Positions 27,746-37,060 are shown, numbered from the stretch's first letter. The stretch is 64,000 nt of DNA from Lysobacteraceae bacterium (GCA_030681035.1 JAUXUI010000069.1:27674-91673), one strand, 5' to 3'. Numbers and translations: made by a program. Notes: generated from the letters alone by a model not told the origin.

Positions 27746-27811
27746 GTGGTCGTTGGGCTATGGGTCGCCGATAGGATCGGCTGCTACCGGTGAGCGCAAC
27801 CGCGCTTTGTG

Positions 27812-27880
27812 GTCGCCCACAGGGTGGGCTCCTACAGGTCGGCGCACCCGGTTTTTGTAGGAGCCCACCCTGTGGGCGGC
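27812..27880. repeat. REP inverted pair (GTCGCCCACAGGGTGGGCTCCTAC family)
   Basis: gtcgcccacagggtgggctcctaca ... tgtaggagcccaccctgtgggcggc. Related copies lie at 61325-61390 and 51691-51714. Confidence 0.6.
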
Positions 27881-27897
27881 CCACGTCAAGACGGCGT

Positions 27898-28029: not shown

Positions 28030-29673
28030 TTGGCGAAGGTAAGCCGCAAGAAAAACGATTCGTCCGCCAATCTCGGTTTCGAGGCCAAGCTCTGGCTCAC
28101 CGCCGACAAACTGCGCAACAACATGGATGCGGCGGAGTACAAGCACGTGGTGCTTGGGCTGATCTTCCTCAAATACATCTCCGATACGTTCGAGGAGCAC
28201 CGCGCCAAGCTCATCGAAGGCGAGGGCAGCTACGAGGGTGCCAATCCCGAAGACCCGGACGAATATAAGGCAGAGAATGTGTTCTGGGTGCCGGCCGATG
28301 CCCGCTGGTCGCACCTGCAGGCCAGTGCCAAGCAGCCCAGCATTGGCAAGACCGTGGACGACGCCATGGTTGCCATCGAGCGCGACAACCCGCGCCTCAA
28401 AGGCGTGCTGCCGAAAGACTACGCCCGCCCCGGGCTCGACAAGCAGCGCCTCGGCGAACTGATCGATGTCATCGCCACCATTGAACTCACAGCCGCCAGC
28501 GAGGGCGAAAAGACCCACCGCTCGGTCGATCTGCTCGGCCGCGTCTACGAATATTTCCTCACCCGCTTTGCCAGCGCCGAGGGCAAGAATGGCGGCCAGT
28601 TCTACACCCCGTCGTGCGTGGTGCGCTGCCTGGTCGAAATGCTCGCCCCTTACAAAGGCCGCATCTACGACCCCGCCTGCGGCTCGGGTGGCATGTTTGT
28701 GCAGTCGGAAAAATTCGTCGAATCGCACGGCGGCAAACTTGGTGACATCAGCATCTACGGCCAGGAGAGCAACGCCACCACCCGCCGCCTCGCGGTGATG
28801 AACCTCGCCCTGCGCGGCATCGAGGCCGACTTCGGCCCCGAGCATGCCGACACCTTCCGCCGCGACCTGCATCCCGACCTGCGCGCCGACTACGTGCTCG
28901 CCAATCCGCCGTTCAACGACTCCGACTGGTTCCGCAAGGATGACGACGTACGCTGGCAATTCGGCGTGCCGCCCAAGGGCAACGCCAACTTTGCCTGGGT
29001 GCAACATTTCGTCCATCACTTGGCACCGAACGGCATGGCCGGCTTCGTCCTCGCCAACGGCAGCATGTCCTCCAACCAGTCCGGCGAAGGCGACATCCGC
29101 CGCGCCCTGATCGAGGCCGATCTGGTGGACTGCATGGTCGCGCTGCCCGGTCAGCTTTTCTACAGCACCCAGATTCCCGTTTGCCTTTGGTTCCTCGCGA
29201 AAAACAAAGCCGCCCGTCATTCCCGCGCAGGCGGGAATCCAGAAAAAACAACAGACCGCCGCAAACAAACGCTGTTCATCGACGCCCGCAAACTCGGCAC
29301 ACTCATCGACCGAGTCCACCGCGAGCTGACCGACGCCGACCTGGAAAAAATTTCCTCCACCTATCACGCCTGGCGCGGCGATGCTCTTGATCGTCATTCC
29401 CGCGAAAGCGGGAATCCAGCGACTTACACCGACATCCCCGGCTTCTGCAAATCCGCAACCACCGCCGAAATCGCCGCCCACGGTCACGTCCTCACTCCCG
29501 GCCGCTACGTAGGCGCCGAAGAAGTCGAAGACGACGGCGAACCCTTCGAAGAAAAGATGCCGCGCCTTGTCGCCGAACTGCACGCCCAGTTTGCCGAATC
29601 CGAGAAGCTGGAGCAGGCCATCAAAGCCAACCTGATTGGGCTGGGCTATGACATAAAGGAGCCACGCGCATGA
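28030..29673 (+). CDS. hsdM: Type I R-M DNA methyltransferase subunit HsdM
   Basis: TTG start. [17 protein letters not shown], AdoMet motif [10 protein letters not shown], catalytic NPPF ([11 protein letters not shown]). Confidence 0.92.
29216..29242. repeat. 27-nt hairpin repeat (GTCATTCCCGCG-N3-CGGGAATCCAG family), in frame inside hsdM
   Basis: gtcattcccgcgcaggcgggaatccag translates as [10 protein letters not shown] within hsdM. Confidence 0.85.
29393..29419. repeat. 27-nt hairpin repeat, second in-frame copy inside hsdM
   Basis: gtcattcccgcgaaagcgggaatccag translates as [10 protein letters not shown] within hsdM. Confidence 0.85.
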
Positions 29674-30101
29674 GACTGAATACCGACCACCTCAAGCGCT
29701 GCATCGATACCCTGCGCTCGTCGCTCACATTTTATGAGCAGGCTGCGGCGGACAGCATAGACCAGGAAATTTTCCGCAACGCCATCGTCAAAGGCTACGA
29801 ACTGGCGCAAGAGACCAGCTTCAAACTGGTAAAAAAAGCCCTGCGTGATTACGGCCACGGCGCAAAAAAGCTCGACACCACGCCCATCAAGGATCTGCTG
29901 CGTTTGTCCGCCACCCATGGCTTGATGACACTCGAAGAAGTGGAACGCTGGTTTGCCTATCGCGACAACCGCAACAACACCGCCCATGACTACGGCGAAA
30001 ACTTCGCCAGGGAAACGCTACGCTTGATTCCCGGCTTCATTGCCGACGTGACGCGACTGGAAACCATCCTGCGCGAACGCTACAGCGAAGGAGACAACTG
30101 A
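29670..30101 (+). CDS. HEPN-domain protein (nucleotidyltransferase substrate-binding protein, HI0074 family)
   Basis: The Rx4H motif is in [12 protein letters not shown]. The ATGA start overlaps the hsdM stop. Confidence 0.8.
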
Positions 30102-30439
30102 TGCCCGAACGATCGTTGCAAACACTGGCGTTGCTGCCCCAGCATCTGGCGATGTTGCGCGCGCTGCTGCAACAGCATCTGCCGCACGCCGAGGTCTGGG
30201 CCTACGGCAGCCGCGTCAACGGCAATGGTCACGACGCCAGCGACCTCGATCTGGTGGTGCGTCAGCCGAACGACCTGAAACAGCAGACCCCCAAACTGGG
30301 AGAAACGCAGGAAGCCTTGTCCGAAAGCAACCTGCCCATTCGCGTCGAGATAGTGGATTGGGCGCGCATCCCGGCCAGTTTCCACCGCGAAATCGAGCAG
30401 GCGTATGTGGTGGTGCAGACGGCGCGTGCGCATGCTTGA
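30101..30439 (+). CDS. Minimal nucleotidyltransferase (MNT) partner of the HEPN protein
   Basis: The GSx10-12DxD motif is in YGSRVNGNGHDASDLDLVV. TGATG overlap with the HEPN gene. Confidence 0.8.
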   Translation: MPERSLQTLALLPQHLAMLRALLQQHLPHAEVWAYGSRVNGNGHDASDLDLVVRQPNDLKQQTPKLGETQEALSESNLPIRVEIVDWARIPASFHREIEQAYVVVQTARAHA

Positions 30440-30446
30440 GGCAAGG

Positions 30447-30493
30447 CAGGCCATCAAAGCCAACCTCACGGGCTTGGGGTATGGCAAGTGAGC
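30447..30493 (+). pseudogene. Orphan duplicate of the hsdM 3' end / hsdS start junction
   Basis: caggccatcaaagccaacctcacgggcttggggtatggcaagtga encodes QAIKANLTGLGYGK* with embedded ATGGCAAGTGAG (MASE). The first 20 nt are identical to 29614-29633. Confidence 0.6.
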
Positions 30494-30557
30494 AACAACA
30501 CTCGCGCCGCGCGCCGTCATCCCCGCGTCGCGTGCCGTCATTCCCTCACCCCTTCCT

Positions 30558-30584
30558 GTCATTCCCGCGAAAGCGGGAATCCAG
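30558..30584. repeat. 27-nt hairpin repeat, preceded by degenerate half copies at ~30516-30547
   Basis: gtcattcccgcgaaagcgggaatccag. Confidence 0.85.
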
Positions 30585-30593
30585 CCAACACAA

Positions 30594-30887
30594 ATGATCG
30601 ACAAACAGCCAGCGGTGTACATTCTTGCCAGCCGCCGCAACGGCACACTGTACGTCGGCGTCACCAGCGATCTCACCAAGCGGATATGGCAACATCAAAA
30701 CGACCTCGCCGAGGGCTTCACCCAGCGCTACAACGTGCATCTACTGGTCTGGTACGAACAACACAGCGAAATCGTAAGTGCCATCGTCCGCGAGAAGCAG
30801 ATCAAGAAATGGAACCGCGCGTGGAAACTCACATTGATCGAAGCAAAAAACCCACAATGGCACGACCTGTGGCCGACTCTGCTATGA
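30594..30887 (+). CDS. GIY-YIG nuclease family protein (small URI-domain protein)
   Basis: AVYILASRRNGTLYVGVTSDLTKRIWQH.....GFTQRYNVHLLVWYE......AIVREKQIKKWNRAWK. Confidence 0.85.
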   Translation: MIDKQPAVYILASRRNGTLYVGVTSDLTKRIWQHQNDLAEGFTQRYNVHLLVWYEQHSEIVSAIVREKQIKKWNRAWKLTLIEAKNPQWHDLWPTLL

Positions 30888-30934
30888 GCCCGCCATGCGT
30901 CCGCGTACCCGAAGCCGGCAGGCAACCGGTGGCT

Positions 30935-30961
30935 CTGGATTCCCGCTTTCGCGGGAATGAC
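30935..30961. repeat. 27-nt hairpin repeat (inverted orientation)
   Basis: ctggattcccgctttcgcgggaatgac. Confidence 0.85.
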
Positions 30962-30977
30962 GGCAGGGGGTTGGGCT

Positions 30978-32287
<1,310 letters not shown>

Positions 32288-32291
<4 letters not shown>

Positions 32292-33358
32292 GCAAAAAGA
32301 AACCCACACCCGGCGGTCGCGCCAAGAAAAAGGCCGAAGTCTCCCTCGTCCGCTCGTCGGCGGCGGAATACCTGACCTTTGTGGCGGCTGGAGGCGCCTC
32401 TGAAGCCAGCGTTGAAATGCGCTACGAAGATGAAAACGTCTGGCTCACGCAGAAGATGATGGCGGCGCTTTACGATGTCTCCGTCCCCGCCATCAACCAG
32501 CACCTGAAGCGCATTTTCAGCGACAACGAACTGGAGGAAAGTTCAGTTGTTAAGCAATACTTAATAGCTGCCGCAGACGGCAAAAATTACCTGACGAAGC
32601 ACTACAGCCTGCAAGCGATCATCGCCGTGGGCTTCAAGATCGAGAACGAGCGGGCCGTCCAATTCCGCAAATGGGCCAACCAGATCGTGAAGGACTACAC
32701 GATCCAAGGCTGGACGATGGATGCGGAGCGCCTCAAGCAAGGTGGCATCCTGACGGATGAGTTTTTTGAGCGGCAGCTTGAGAAGATTCGGGAAATCCGG
32801 CTCTCCGAGCGAAAGTTCTACCAGAAAATCACGGACATTTACGCCACCGCGCTGGACTACGACCCGTCCGCTACGGCGACGAAGCGCTTCTTTGCCGCAG
32901 TGCAAAACAAGATGCACTTCGCCGTGCATGGCCAGACGGCGGCTGAGGTGATCGTGGACCGCGCCGACCATCAAAAACAAAACATGGGGCTGACGACTTG
33001 GGAGGCTGCGCCGAAAGGGAAAATCCAACGCTACGACGTTTCCATCGCCAAGAACTACCTCTCGGACTCCGAAATGGGCCAGATGCAGCGCATCGTCTCC
33101 GCCTACCTCGACATGGCCGAGATGCAGGCGATGCGGAAGATTCCGATGACCATGGAAGACTGGGAAAAGCGCTTGAGCGGCTTCCTCCAACTCTGGGACC
33201 GGGACATTCTACAGGACGCGGGCAGAGTGTCGGCGGAACTGGCAAAGGCCCATGCCGAGAGCGAGTTTGAGAAATACCGCATCGTGCAGGACCGGCTGTT
33301 CGAGTCGGACTTTGACCGGATAATCAAGGAGCTGCCGTCGGGGGCCGACAAGTCATGA
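32288..33358 (+). CDS. rhuM: RhuM family (virulence protein RhuM-like) protein embedded between hsdS and hsdR
   Basis: [75 protein letters not shown] overlaps at both ends. Confidence 0.8.
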
Positions 33359-36300
33359 GCCTCAACGAATCCACCGTCGAAGACGCCGCCCTCGAATGGT
33401 TCAGGGAGCTGGGCTATGCGATCGGCCACGGGCCGCAACTCGCACCCGGTGAGCCGGCGGCAGAGCGCGATTCGTTTGCCGAGGTGGTGCTGGCGGGGCG
33501 ATTGCGTGAAGCCATCGCGCGATTGAACCCCTCCATTCCGGAAGACGCACGGGATGAAGCGCTGCGCAAGGTGTTGAGAGTAGGGACGCCTTCGCTGACG
33601 CAGAGCAACCGTGCCTTTCACCGGATGCTCAGGGACGGGGTTGATGTTGAATACCCACGTGAGGACGGCTCGATCAAGGGCGACAAGGTTTTACTCGTCG
33701 ATTTTGCGGATGTCCGGGCAAATGACTGGTTCGTCGTGAACCAATTCACCGTGATCGAGGGCCAGCACAACCGGCGGCCGGACATCGTGGTGTTCCTCAA
33801 TGGGCTGCCGCTGGGCCTGATCGAGCTGAAGAACGCGGCGGATGAGGACGCGACGATCTGGAGCGCCTACGCGCAGTTGCAAACCTACAAGGCGGAGATT
33901 CCCAGTCTGTTGCATTACAACGCGGCGCTGGTGGTGAGTGATGGCTTGCAGGCGCGCATGGGTTCGGTGACGGCGAACCAGGAATGGTTCAAGGTCTGGC
34001 GCACGATTGATGGCGAGGGTGACGCGCCGAAGGCGGCGCTGGAGCTGGAAGTGCTGATACGCGGGGTGTTCGAGCGGCAGCGCTTGCTCGACTTGCTGCA
34101 CCACTTCATCGTTTTCGAGGAAGACCCGGATTCGGGCGCGCTGCACAAGATCATCGCCGGCTACCACCAGTTTTACGCGGTGAATGCCGCGGTGGAAGAA
34201 ACCGTGCGCGCCAGTGGCATGCGTGTACACGAGGAGGCCGGCAGGTATTGGGCGGGCCGGATGCACGGTGGCAAACCGGGCGATCGTCGCGCCGGCGTGG
34301 TCTGGCACACGCAGGGCAGCGGCAAGAGTTTTTCGATGCTGTTTTTTGCCGCGCGCGTGGTGCGGCATGCGGCGATGCAGAACCCGACGCTGGTGGTGCT
34401 GACTGACCGCAATGATCTTGATGACCAGCTTTTCGGCCAGTTCCAACGCTGCGCCGACATCCTCGGCCAGACGCCGGTGCAGGCCGGCGGGCGCGAGCAT
34501 TTGCGCGAGCTGCTGAACCGTGCCAGCGGCGGCGTGGTGTTCACCACCATTCACAAGTTCATGCCCGAAAAAGGCGAGGCGATGCCCGAGCTGAGCGCGC
34601 GGCAGAACATTGTCGTGATTGCGGATGAAGCGCACCGCAGCCAGTACGGGTTTGGCGGCAAGGTGGATGAAAAGACCGGCGATATGACCTACGGCTTCGC
34701 CAGCAACCTGCGCGATGCCTTGCCCAATGCGTCGTACATCGGTTTCACCGGCACCCCCATCGAAAAGACCGACGCCAACACGCGGGCGGTGTTCGGCGAT
34801 TACATTTCCATCTACGACATCCAGCGCGCCGTTGCCGACAAAGCCACGGTGCCAATCTATTACGAGAGCCGCATTTCCAAGCTGAGCCTGAATGCTGCCG
34901 AGCTGCCGCAGCTCGATGAAGAGTTCGAGGAAATCACCGAAGGCGAGGAACTGACGAGGAAGGAAAAGCTCAAGACCAAGTGGGCCGCGCTGGAGGCGCT
35001 GGTGGGCGACCCGAAACGCATCGCGCTGGTGGCCGCCGACCTGGTGACGCATTTCGAGAAACGCCTGGAGGCGATGGACGGCAAGGCAATGATTGTGTGC
35101 ATGAGCCGCCGCATTGCCGTCGACCTGTACAACGCGCTGATCGATCTGCGGCCGGAGTGGGCCAGCGCCCAGGACGACGATGCGGAGGTGGAAAAGGGCA
35201 AGGCCTGTGTGGTGAAGGTGGTTATGACCGGCAGTGCCGACGATGGCCCCGATTGGCAGCCGCATATCCGCAGCAAGGACAAGCGCCGCAAGCTGGCGTA
35301 CCGTTTCAAGGATGTCAACGACCCGTTCCGTATCGTGATTGTGCGCGACATGTGGCTGACCGGGTTCGACGCGCCCTGCCTGCACACCATGTACGCCGAC
35401 AAGCCGATGCAGGGCCACGGACTGATGCAGGCCATCGCCCGGGTGAACCGCGTTTTCCGCGACAAGCCCGGCGGCTTGGTCGTGGATTACCTCGGCCTTG
35501 CCGATCAGCTCAAGCAGGCGCTGGTGACCTACACCGAGAGCGGCGGGCAGGGTGATCCCACTTTCGACACCGCGCAAGCCATTGCCGTGATGTTGGAGAA
35601 ACACGGCATCGCTTGCGACCTGATGCACGGCCTCGACTGGCGCAAGTGGACCAACGGCAAACCTGCTGAGCGCCTTGCCCTCATGCCCGCTGGGCAGCAA
35701 CACATCCTCGAACAGGCTGACGGCAAGCAACGCTGGGTGCAGATGGTGACCGAACTCTCGCGTGCCTTTGCCCTTTGCGCGGCCAGCGATGAGGCGACGG
35801 CAATCCGCGACGACGTTTCCTACTTCCAGGCCCTGCAAGCCGCGCTCAACAAGCAGACCAGCGAGAACCGCAAGACCCCCGAGCAGATCGATGCCGCAAT
35901 CCGCCAGCTCGTGAGCCGTGCCATCACTACCGAAGGCCAGGTGATCGATGTTTTCACTGCTGCCGGCTTGCCCAAGCCGGACATCAGTATCTTGAGTGAT
36001 CAGTTTCTCGCCGAAGTGCGCGGACTCAAGCACAAAAACGTCGCCGCCGAGCTGCTGGAGAAGTTGCTCAAGGATGAACTCAAGGTGCGCGCTCGGCGCA
36101 ACCTGGTGCAGAGCCAGGTGTTTTCGGAGAAGCTCAAAAAGACCCTCAACGCGTATCACAACCGTGCCATCTCGACGATGCAGGTAATCGAGGAACTGAT
36201 CAATCTCGCCAAGGACCTCGATGCCGCCAGCAAGCGCGGCGAAGACATGGGCCTGAGCGTCGATGAAGTGGCCTTTTACGACGCGTTGGCTGCCAACGAA

Positions 36301-36540
36301 TCCGCCGTGATTGCGATGGGCGACGACAAGCTGCGCGTCATCGCCGCCGAGCTGATCACCAAGGTTCGGCAAAGCACCACGATCGATTGGCAGTATCGCG
36401 AAAGCGCCCGCGCCAGAATCCGCGTCATCGTCAAGCGCATCCTCAACAAATATGGCTACCCACCCGATCTGCAGAATGCCGCCGTCCAACTGGTGTTGCA
36501 GCAAGCGGAGTTGCTGTCAGCTGAGTGGGCGGTGGCGTAG
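33355..36540 (+). CDS. hsdR: Type I restriction endonuclease R subunit HsdR
   Basis: [21 protein letters not shown]. Nuclease region [20 protein letters not shown]. Helicase motifs [31 protein letters not shown]. Confidence 0.92.
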
Positions 36541-36610: not shown

Positions 36611-36883
36611 AATTCGTCATTCCCGCGAATGCGGGAATCCAGTGACTTTAATTCGTCATTCCCGCGAATGCGGGAATCCAGTGACTTTAATTCGTCATTC
36701 CCGCGAATGCGGGAATCCAGTGACTTTAATTCGTCATTCGCGCGAATGCGGGAATCCAGTGACTTTAATTCGTCATTCCCGCGAATGCGAGAATCCAGTG
36801 ACTTTAATTCGTCATTCCCGCGAATGCGGGAATCCAGTGACTTTAATTCGTCATTCCCGCGAATGCGGGAATCCAGTGACTTT
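36611..36883. repeat. Tandem array: 7 x 39 bp units, each containing the 27-nt hairpin
   Basis: The unit is aattcgtcattcccgcgaatgcgggaatccagtgacttt, starting at 36611, 36650, 36689, 36728, 36767, 36806 and 36845. Two units carry single substitutions (copy 4 c->g, copy 5 g->a). Confidence 0.92.
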
Positions 36884-36942: not shown

Positions 36943-37060
36943 TTAAGGAAACTCTGAACAAGTCGTCACCCCGGCGAAGGCCGGGGTCCAGGTTATTGAT
37001 TCTGCTGGATTCCCGCTTTCGCGGGAATGACGAAATCCAACTTGTTCAGAGCGTCCTTAA
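36943..37060. mobile_element. MITE-like element: terminal inverted repeats flanking two hairpin modules
   Basis: Left end TTAAGGAAACTCTGAACAAGT. Right end ACTTGTTCAGAGCGTCCTTAA, whose reverse complement is TTAAGGACGCTCTGAACAAGT. Internal hairpins GTCACCCCGGCGAAGGCCGGGGTCCAG (36965-36991) and CTGGATTCCCGCTTTCGCGGGAATGAC (37005-37031). Confidence 0.55.

Follow-up and report, generated by a model that had tools for sequence, protein, structure and literature searches.

The window analysed here, that is, the whole 64-kb stretch of Lysobacteraceae bacterium DNA, read on one strand and numbered from its first letter, contains a single co-oriented type I restriction-modification (R-M) operon, hsdM - HEPN - MNT - ssnA - hsdS - rhuM - hsdR, in which the 3' end of hsdM together with the start of hsdS is found in triplicate. 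Junction copies A and B bracket a pair of HEPN and minimal nucleotidyltransferase (MNT) genes, and copies B and C bracket a GIY-YIG nuclease gene with inverted hairpin repeats. This placement, proposed in an earlier reading made from the sequence alone (hereafter the sequence-only reading), agrees with the Pfam assignments and with a repeat search. The copies probably represent duplications produced by insertion or recombination at the overlapping hsdM/hsdS junction and kept for the translation-initiation context and the relay coupling that they provide.

The three copies are located where the sequence-only reading had placed them:

29613-29653, plus strand: junction copy A, GCAGGCCATCAAAGCCAACCTGATTGGGCTGGGCTATGACA, the working hsdM tail
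30446-30491, plus strand: junction copy B, an orphan hsdM tail with an hsdS-type start
30964-30988, plus strand: junction copy C, a minimal hsdM tail (RGLGYGE and stop) with an AGGGGG Shine-Dalgarno sequence, overlapping the real hsdS start

Homology of copy A to the canonical junction stops at the ATG at 29648-50, the expected hsdS start, which here opens only ATGACATAA. Copy B begins 7 nucleotides (nt) past the MNT stop codon (30437-39), reads QAIKANLTGLGYGK followed by a stop, and holds ATGGCAAGTGA with its ATG at 30481. The true hsdS start, ATG 30978 (MASEWKNE), lies in copy C. Copies A and B share an exact match, as had been noted before, although its length is 21 rather than 20 nt; it encodes QAIKANL and lies within 41 nt of 83% ungapped or 90% gapped identity, the copies diverging beyond it. 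With up to three mismatches allowed, this 21-mer occurs only at those two sites in the window and in none of 100 shuffles. Copies B and C both fit GGGNTTGGGNTATGGCNAGTGA with no mismatches and are identical at 19 of 22 nt, the figure estimated earlier; the 22-nt pattern, with its 19 fixed positions, has no other match in the window even at two mismatches, with zero expected from shuffles. Over 29395-30544 (copy A, HEPN-MNT and copy B) the window is matched at 100% identity by four Logan contigs, which come from different runs, and the NCBI metagenome-assembled genome (MAG) contig JAXMLU010000025.1 matches it except in repeat-array length. Since independent assemblies give the same arrangement, an assembly artefact is unlikely.

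The genes of the operon are the following:

28030-29673, plus strand: hsdM, 547 amino acids (aa); Pfam N6_Mtase (PF02384, 1e-103) and HsdM_N (PF12161, 5e-27); PADLOC MTase_I (5e-213)
29670-30101, plus strand: HEPN gene, putative toxin; Pfam NTase_sub_bind (PF08780, 5e-19); RNNTAH as the Rx4H motif
30101-30439, plus strand: MNT gene, putative antitoxin; Pfam NTP_transf_2 (PF01909) / Polbeta (PF18765); PADLOC PDC-S09
30594-30887, plus strand: ssnA-like gene, 97 aa, single GIY-YIG domain (Pfam, 6e-15)
30978-32291, plus strand: hsdS, 437 aa, beginning MASEWKNE; Pfam Methylase_S in two stretches; PADLOC Specificity_I (1e-119)
32288-33358, plus strand: rhuM-family gene between hsdS and hsdR; Pfam RhuM (1e-103); PADLOC PDC-S05; ATGA overlaps at both ends
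33355-36540, plus strand: hsdR, 1061 aa; Pfam HSDR_N, SWI2_SNF2, ResIII and T1RH-like_C

The presence of HsdM, an HsdS with two Methylase_S stretches and HsdR, encoded in the same operon and on the same strand, identifies it by domain content as a type I R-M system. Comparison of the tails indicates that HsdM ends with DIKEPRA and a stop where the canonical G[GE] ending is expected. Two in-frame repeat inserts of hsdM fall in loops that are variable among homologs. The ATG of the HEPN gene (29670-72) overlaps the hsdM TGA (29671-73) in an ATGA, and its AAGGAG Shine-Dalgarno sequence sits within the hsdM tail; the MNT start overlaps the HEPN stop by 1 nt (TGATG). The MNT protein carries a GS...DLD motif (YGSRVNGNGHDASDLDLVV) of the G[GS]...DxD type, and with the motifs of both families present the pair can be described as a putative toxin-antitoxin (TA) module. 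The possibility that the cassettes carry their own promoters or terminators was rejected, no promoter-like or terminator-like signal above chance being found within 29600-31000.

A scan of genome contigs with one genome per species returned 80 HsdM-family loci (63-89% identity to the window HsdM, the closest relative at 89%) that belong to a very wide range of bacterial and archaeal phyla. Because locally aligning the C-terminal 150 residues of HsdM to the flanks gave too much noise at scores under about 55, tails were sought by a motif scan and by nucleotide alignment. The sequence-only reading had made its insertion hypothesis depend on single-copy empty junctions, alleles with only one cassette and alternative cargo at the same site, and all of these occur among relatives. 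The junction is empty in 41 of the 80 loci: hsdM ends with NLxGLGYG[GEQR] and a stop, and the hsdS ATG lies within the Tyr-Gly codons, 10 nt ahead of the end of the stop codon, giving an 11-nt gene overlap (ATGGnnnnTGA). A purine-rich AGGGGG or AAGGGG is typically found 10-15 nt upstream of the hsdS ATG, inside hsdM; this stretch in the last ~25 nt of hsdM looks like the hsdS ribosome-binding site.

In at least 21 other loci hsdM and hsdS stand 0.25-5.5 kb apart, and eight more contain cargo with no recognisable hsdS nearby. By Pfam, the cargo comprises TA-type pairs (BrnT/BrnA, ParD/ParE, two MNT/HepT, HEPN/MNT, Gp49/HTH_37 and MazF/DUF4926) and other genes (an IS200 transposase, six YhcG/DUF1016, two Fic, Abi_2, two ORF6N, Uma2 and two RhuM). 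In occupied junctions HsdM is kept up to GLGY and then diverges at once (AV, AL, EI, EL or DIKEPRA before the stop), and the first cargo gene often begins at exactly the ATG that hsdS would use. Orphan hsdM tails stand directly before hsdS or before the next cargo gene in about ten loci:

L009: orphan tail of 66 nt, 94% identical
L013: orphan tail of 97 nt, 77% identical, behind the IS200 gene
L020: orphan tail of at least 43 nt, 81% identical
L062: orphan tail of 30 nt, 97% identical
L080: orphan tail of 56 nt, 84% identical
L042, L043, L067 and L069: orphan tails detected at the peptide level

In L009 and L013 the orphans (66-97 nt) code for as many as 33 C-terminal HsdM residues. Two loci, L043 (ORF6N, then YhcG) and L069 (Uma2, then ParDE), resemble the window in having two cassettes and three tails. 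Where an occupied locus has no long orphan (L008, L025, L027 and L052), some 10-25 nt that resemble the junction are still found ahead of hsdS. Overall, the lengths of the junction repeats vary from about 25 to more than 100 nt, and their end points differ by locus.

Closer alleles, obtained by exact-protein look-ups of HEPN and GIY-YIG homologs, complete the series: empty junctions, HEPN-MNT only, ssnA only, and both, as in the window, all exist among relatives. The alleles with HEPN-MNT only (L087/L088, L091 and L188) encode HEPN proteins 92-94% identical to that of the window and have no GIY-YIG gene. In L087, L091 and L188 the order is hsdM - HEPN - MNT - 84 nt - hsdS, the 84 nt forming a 32-codon open reading frame (ORF) that starts on an ATGA over the MNT stop and ends with AANLRGLGYG[EG] and a stop over the hsdS ATG. 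This linker is conserved between L087 and L091 and was already present in the gene calls of the L091 source. The window aligns continuously with L087 from the hsdM start through MNT (82% nt identity), and alignment resumes at copy C and the hsdS start (28 of 30 nt identical to the L087 orphan tail), so that copy C is orthologous to that tail. L087 and L091 share cassette and orphan tail and have different hsdS alleles. Because the operon with HEPN-MNT is common to the window, L087 and L091 at about 82% nt identity, this pair is old in the lineage rather than a recent acquisition.

The allele with ssnA only, L103, encodes a GIY-YIG protein 90% identical to that of the window, with flanks 89-90% identical at the nucleotide level. 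Its hsdM ends with QAIKANLRGLGYGK and a stop and passes directly into a repeat array, ssnA, an inverted hairpin and a C-type copy. The single tail of L103 aligns to both A and B, copy B being the real hsdM end there. In L102 the GIY-YIG gene (87% identical) is directly upstream of hsdS, and a 67-nt direct repeat of 94% identity, comprising the inverted hairpin and the junction, is found on both sides of ssnA (3-69 and 457-523); this contig ends near the repeat. The L102 repeat suggests tandem ssnA cassettes formed by unequal recombination between junction copies. In L097-L101 the order is hsdM - YhcG - HEPN - MNT - repeats - degenerate tail - hsdS. By comparison with L103, HEPN-MNT can be read as an insertion with a target duplication of 38-41 nt, and by comparison with L087 the GIY-YIG unit can be read as an insertion with a duplication of about 24 nt; in both cases the event may instead have been a loss, with the direct repeats recombining.

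The HEPN-MNT pair also occurs outside R-M operons: pairs at 91-92% aa identity were found in three unrelated contexts (Thiorhodovibrio L094-L096, L186 and L187), and HEPN homologs of 91-94% identity occur in both R-M and non-R-M settings. The homology with Thiorhodovibrio (L095) is limited to the two ORFs (window 29669-30421) and reaches 88.7% at the nucleotide level, higher than the identity to the R-M-embedded copy of L087. A near-identical pair is located at L186 1492-2285, outside an R-M operon; in L187 (4307-5734) the pair is immediately preceded by a small ORF and a gene with a PIN_3 domain, which may form a second TA pair.

The GIY-YIG gene is enclosed by two hairpins of the NTS type:

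30557-30584, plus strand: NTS / CGTC-1 hairpin, forward, 10 nt upstream of ssnA, matching the NTS consensus with one mismatch
30935-30962, minus strand: NTS hairpin, inverted, downstream of ssnA

Both flanks (CGTCATTCCCGCGAAAGCGGGAATCCAG, forward upstream and inverted downstream) fit the consensus CGTCATTCCCGCGMAVGCGGGAATCYRG. The forward hairpin folds as DNA at -10.1 kcal/mol (z -5.1); the inverted one matches it except at the first base of the CGTC tag and is 100% complementary to a copy inside hsdM (29392-29419). The arms of the inverted repeat reach past the hairpin into the junction over 49 nt at 84% complementarity (30536-30584 / 30935-30983). More than 8000 relatives of the GIY-YIG protein were found, thousands of them 94-100 aa long, with PF01541 covering residues 7-78. 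The association with hairpins was surveyed in 80 metagenomic ssnA relatives, 67 of which had enough flanking sequence. NTS-like hairpins on both sides were present in 41 of these 67; among the 41, the nearest upstream hairpin was forward in 32 and the nearest downstream hairpin inverted in 34, usually within about 30 nt of the gene, while the density more than 400 nt away was 0.14 per kb. Known Ssn proteins are single-domain nucleases with site-specific cleavage of single-stranded DNA, flanked by cognate NTS hairpins, with repeats on both sides in 42% of cases (Chenal 2025, PMC11893778); for published homologs, biochemistry shows that this cleavage lowers integration of NTS-bearing DNA (PMC11893778). 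These hairpins are repeats of the CGTC-1 / dRS3 class (Di Nocera et al. 2013, PMC3733652). The single domain and the flanking repeats thus assign the unit, as judged from its sequence, to the published NTS-ssnA-NTS element. The idea of an undescribed repeat-associated nuclease was dropped, the Ssn/NTS system being already published (PMC11893778), and GIY-YIG homing, which the sequence-only reading had listed among possible mechanisms, was rejected, as the 97-aa protein consists of the catalytic domain only and its family cuts single-stranded DNA and is not a double-strand homing endonuclease. In L104 the same unit is located between genes for a P-type ATPase and DsbD_2, in a non-R-M context. 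Since each also occurs in unrelated non-R-M contexts, HEPN-MNT and NTS-ssnA-NTS are best regarded as independently mobile modules.

Every stop and start from hsdM to hsdR overlaps when three small ORFs that run through the junction copies are included:

30432-30491, plus strand: relay ORF 1, 19 codons, MLEARQAIKANLTGLGYGK and stop, ending on the TGA of copy B
30481-30597, plus strand: leader ORF 2, 38 codons, beginning MASEQQHS, from the copy B ATG through the repeat array to a TGA at the ssnA ATG (ATGA)
30884-30988, plus strand: relay ORF 3, 34 codons, from MSPPC to GRGLGYGE and stop, from an ATGA over the ssnA stop through the inverted NTS to the TGA of copy C

Relay ORF 1 starts 5 nt before the MNT stop codon and overlaps the MNT ORF by 8 nt. 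In four alleles, with 24, 38, 73 and 122 codons, no stop interrupts the leader between the ATG of copy B and the ATGA of ssnA; the array indels of L081, L102 and L103 (+252, +105 and -42 nt) are all multiples of the 21-nt sub-repeat, so that the frame of the leader is never broken. Relay ORF 3 is kept by L081 and L102 and, as far as its contig reaches, by L103. No recognisable Shine-Dalgarno sequence precedes ssnA. The hsdS/rhuM and rhuM/hsdR overlaps are again ATGA. Among relatives, 10 of 12 orphan tails examined are located in an ORF that starts over or abuts the stop of the preceding gene and whose own stop overlaps the next ATG. Combining the shuffle tests of the intervening sequences by Fisher's method gave p ~7e-5 over the eight positive loci and, in our own recalculation with the two negatives counted, ~6e-4. 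Translational coupling of hsdM and hsdS is established in EcoKI (Roer et al. 2012, PMC3510504), where the hsdM stop likewise overlaps the hsdS start. Coupling was measured in that system, while here it is predicted from sequence; the overlap is 1 nt in EcoKI and 11 nt in the HsdM family of the window, where it appears to be carried through the inserted genes by the relay ORFs.

The explanation we favour combines these observations as follows. Since the 11-nt overlap and the hsdS initiation region, with the probable ribosome-binding site, lie inside hsdM, only rearrangements that duplicate the segment spare both genes. Two independently mobile modules, HEPN-MNT and NTS-ssnA-NTS, would have entered this junction, and the copies would be the scars of these events (about 38-41 nt for HEPN-MNT and about 24 nt for ssnA), left either by recombination between alleles or by 'insertion with long target duplication'; one possible source of the duplications is illegitimate joining while operon variants exchange DNA. 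The copies may have been retained because each gives the next gene its native initiation context, and each would end a small relay ORF, so that the chain from hsdM to hsdR could be translationally coupled. As short direct repeats they could also allow later loss, duplication and exchange of modules and of hsdS alleles. The copies themselves, the four occupancy states, the recurrence in other lineages and the chain of overlapping ORFs were observed directly, while the selective reason, the physical mechanism of recombination and the order of events are inferred.

Several points weigh against this explanation. L103 and L087 could derive from a two-cassette ancestor by deletion between A and B or between B and C, respectively. 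The 21-mer of A and B is conserved in many alleles, L009 and L103 included, and the identity of these copies is consequently uninformative on the recency of the event; B and C differ at 3 of 22 positions and are hence no fresh duplication. The sequential insertion at one junction envisaged by the sequence-only reading holds for the separable modules, the regenerated junction and the intact hsdM and hsdS, but the order and direction of the events may have been different, as insertion and loss by recombination of the direct repeats would look alike. As to coupling, two of the 12 orphan tails (L069a and L080) are outside relay ORFs, and each single shuffle test is weak (P = 0.006-0.33 per locus). 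The TGA in the -1 frame is dictated by the conserved HsdS N-terminus (MAGEW / MASEW), which makes a part of the junction retention trivial. Finally, no reading frame of the hairpins contains a stop, and array indels come in multiples of 21 nt, so that upkeep of the leader frame may come at no cost and could be a by-product.

Other origins of the copies were considered. We hold it possible, though doubtful, that the junction works as a homology-driven cassette array in which the hsdM tail is the recombination site: an excised circle of tail and cargo would enter any tail by a Campbell-type crossover that regenerates a tail on each side, and type I operons would act like RecA-dependent integrons. 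A tail indeed follows every cassette, arrays of three tails and two cassettes recur (the window, L043 and L069), the four occupancy states all exist, and the 67-nt, 94% direct repeat around ssnA in L102 suggests tandem duplication through tails. Crossovers do occur in the tail, since homology between L087 and L091 ends at the ATG, followed by different hsdS. However, the leader and trailer of HEPN-MNT differ among the window, L087 and L097, and its non-R-M copies have no tail; the tails are short (25-66 nt) and diverged (77-94%) and would be poor RecA substrates; and the first cargo gene often starts on the very ATG of hsdS, which suggests junctions that are old and co-evolved and not a frequent traffic of cassettes. 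A broader version of the idea, to which we give a similarly small chance, treats the hsdM/hsdS junction as a modular docking site, with the tail copy serving both as homology handle and as relay-ORF terminator. On that view, type I operons would be arrays of defence cassettes driven by recombination and chained in translation, comparable to integrons but based on homology; this is weakened because the same cargo differs in its boundaries between operons and has no tail outside R-M. True site-specific capture, with a dedicated recombinase and the junction as att site, is the least credible origin. It shares with the locus only the formal resemblance of a cassette array with a repeat after each member: integron arrays are likewise linear series of co-oriented, promoterless cassettes, but here there is no integrase, the repeats are unstructured pieces of a host gene of variable length, and translational coupling, not attC biology, seems to be what expression depends on. 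Pfam analysis of the nine annotated ORFs at 23.8-36.5 kb, which belong to the operon or lie just upstream of it, revealed no transposase, integrase or recombinase domain. The junction copies do not fold better than shuffles (z = 0.0 and -1.0), for which reason an att-like structured site was rejected, and the repeats vary in length (25 to ~100 nt) and end points among loci. The variable lengths and the lack of a recombinase gene thus agree better with illegitimate or long-target-duplication events than with a site-specific system.

The B/C duplication could also have been made by the NTS-ssnA-NTS unit itself, by Ssn cleavage near the hairpins or by repeat-mediated recombination at a G-rich target resembling its flanks. 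This is unlikely: the published activity is single-stranded cleavage, with neither transposition nor target duplication shown (PMC11893778), the empty junction has no NTS, and cargos other than ssnA show the same junction duplication, so that an ssnA-specific mechanism is unneeded. In favour of such an origin are the portability of the unit (L104), the 49-nt inverted arms (84%) that extend into the junction, the two in-frame entries of NTS into hsdM and the difference in repeat-array length between assemblies. That the copies are not duplications at all but convergent or retained initiation regions (SD-ATG-GGnnnTGA, SD standing for Shine-Dalgarno), with B a decayed piece, would suit the 10-25 nt of junction-like sequence kept before hsdS in L008, L025, L027 and L052 and the TGA forced by the HsdS N-terminus. 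Yet the 21-nt match of A and B encodes QAIKANL, well upstream of the initiation signals, B is orthologous to the real hsdM end of L103, and the orphans of L009 and L013 extend over 66-97 nt and up to 33 HsdM codons. The length and coding content of the orphan tails largely refute convergence already, and we regard it as very improbable.

The components of this locus are largely known, namely embedded defence genes, HEPN-MNT, Ssn/NTS and long-target-duplication insertion, and the sequence-only view of junction embedding as undescribed was therefore too broad. Embedding in type I R-M operons is documented for PrrC in EcoprrI and for HEPN, RhuM and Fic (Anantharaman et al. 2013, PMC3710099) and for TgvAB (PMC11411939). 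'Guilt-by-embedding' has been used to find new defence systems from R-M-embedded genes by Payne et al. (2024, bioRxiv 10.1101/2024.01.29.577857), in whose view the significance of embedding has yet to be explored and who propose a 'genomic sink'. In the portions consulted, to which our statements on them refer, these surveys describe co-oriented accessory genes nested among hsd genes, as in the window, and the cargo found here (HEPN-MNT, RhuM, Fic, Abi_2, YhcG and TA pairs) agrees with their lists; RhuM and MNT of the window match the PADLOC embedded-candidate families PDC-S05 and PDC-S09. The surveys catalogue what is embedded rather than how, and the same portions do not mention a reiterated hsdM/hsdS junction, relay ORFs or an embedded ssnA. 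Nothing specific on hsdM/hsdS junction duplication, remnants or hot spots was found in the open-access literature.

In 'insertion with long target duplication' the repeats exceed 30 bp and are variable in length, and no transposase or integrase is involved (Nobusato et al. 2000; Furuta, Abe and Kobayashi 2010, PMC2853133); many of them lie across a start or stop codon, so that the target gene survives, and operon-like targets have been noted (PMC2853133). The window is similar in its flanking direct repeats, in their overlap with a start and stop and in the sparing of the target. There, however, the insert is an R-M system and the target any gene, whereas here the target is the gene overlap of the R-M operon itself and the inserts are a TA pair and the ssnA unit; moreover, the duplication recurs at one homologous site across phyla and is stackable three times. 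The A/B repeat around HEPN-MNT (38-41 nt, one copy in L103) is above the 30-bp limit, and that around ssnA (~24 nt, one copy in L087) is below it. As ssnA with its NTS copies may itself be a mobile unit, the lack of a transposase is to be read with this caveat. Relative to HEPN-MNT type II TA systems (HI0073/HI0074-type, NTase_sub_bind), the pair shares the two small overlapping genes, the portability, the Rx4H motif of HEPN and the GS...DxD motif of MNT; here HEPN precedes MNT, and the pair has no detectable promoter of its own and probably takes part in a translational chain with hsdM and hsdS. Relative to the published NTS-ssnA-NTS elements (PMC11893778), the 97-aa single-domain GIY-YIG protein, the forward and inverted flanks and the frequency of two-sided repeats (41/67 against 42%) are alike, while the location inside a type I R-M operon between copies of a host gene junction, and the leader and trailer ORFs that overlap the neighbours and read through the unit, are different.

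As far as the open-access literature goes, three features appear to be new: the hsdM/hsdS overlap being used again and again in different phyla, with the junction reiterated after each cassette, the conserved chain of relay ORFs, and an ssnA unit embedded in a type I operon for which all four occupancy states are recoverable. The locus and its relatives give a concrete picture of embedding, with the overlap as a recurrent entry point across phyla. If the relay-ORF idea is true, it would explain the near-universal co-orientation of embedded genes, their ability to do without promoters and ribosome-binding sites of their own, and the protection of M:S stoichiometry. Orphan junction copies are a simple sequence marker of past insertions and could delimit cassettes in large-scale screens.

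The hsdS-hsdR junction of relatives shows a mirror-image pattern, with orphan hsdR 5' or hsdS 3' fragments beside embedded cargo (L004 13944-14120; L007 14651-14833; L010 4276-4677; L022 16184-16264 and 17787-17873; L071 13816-13977); the hsdR 5' fragments comprise 29-134 codons with identity up to 85%. In the Poribacteria MAG locus L058 (10001-12934), hsdM continues in frame for about 450 codons beyond NLERLG and looks like an HsdM-cargo fusion at the hsdM/hsdS junction. The top PADLOC match of MNT is to the first 100 of the 485 positions in PDLC03138, a 'Type I specificity subunit' profile, so that some annotated HsdS proteins seem to include an MNT domain. Such HsdS-MNT proteins may stem from linker ORFs that were read through or fused; in L097, for example, the gene call for hsdS is 508 aa long and begins at the MNT stop. 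A second, distant hsdR-like gene is located at 710-2680 on the minus strand of the window, with 24% identity to the operon HsdR over 720 residues.

Copies of the NTS hairpin are concentrated around the operon: of 14 matches in 64 kb, 10 lie within 8 kb at 29.2-37.0 kb. Two are in frame inside hsdM (29215-29242 and 29392-29419). In many other lineages (L008, L012, L022, L061, L070, L087 and L003), unrelated and apparently repeat-derived inserts, also in frame, occupy these two HsdM loops, which follow LAKNK and YHAWRG; the situation resembles the in-frame palindromic elements of Rickettsia. Directly after hsdR (36615-36876), seven tandem 39-nt units with one NTS hairpin each form a stop-free pseudo-ORF (NSSFPRMRESSDF, seven times), which is followed by an inverted NTS copy at 37005-37032 on the minus strand. 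The NCBI assembly of the same organism, L081 (6846-7176, corresponding to window 30515-30593), has a repeat array between copy B and ssnA that is 252 nt longer. Upstream of hsdM (27811-27881), a 26-nt inverted repeat with 96% complementarity and a 19-nt spacer (GGTCGCCCACAGGGTGGGCTCCTACA / TGTAGGAGCCCACCCTGTGGGCGGCC) resembles a dimeric repeat of a second family, possibly of the GTAG type.

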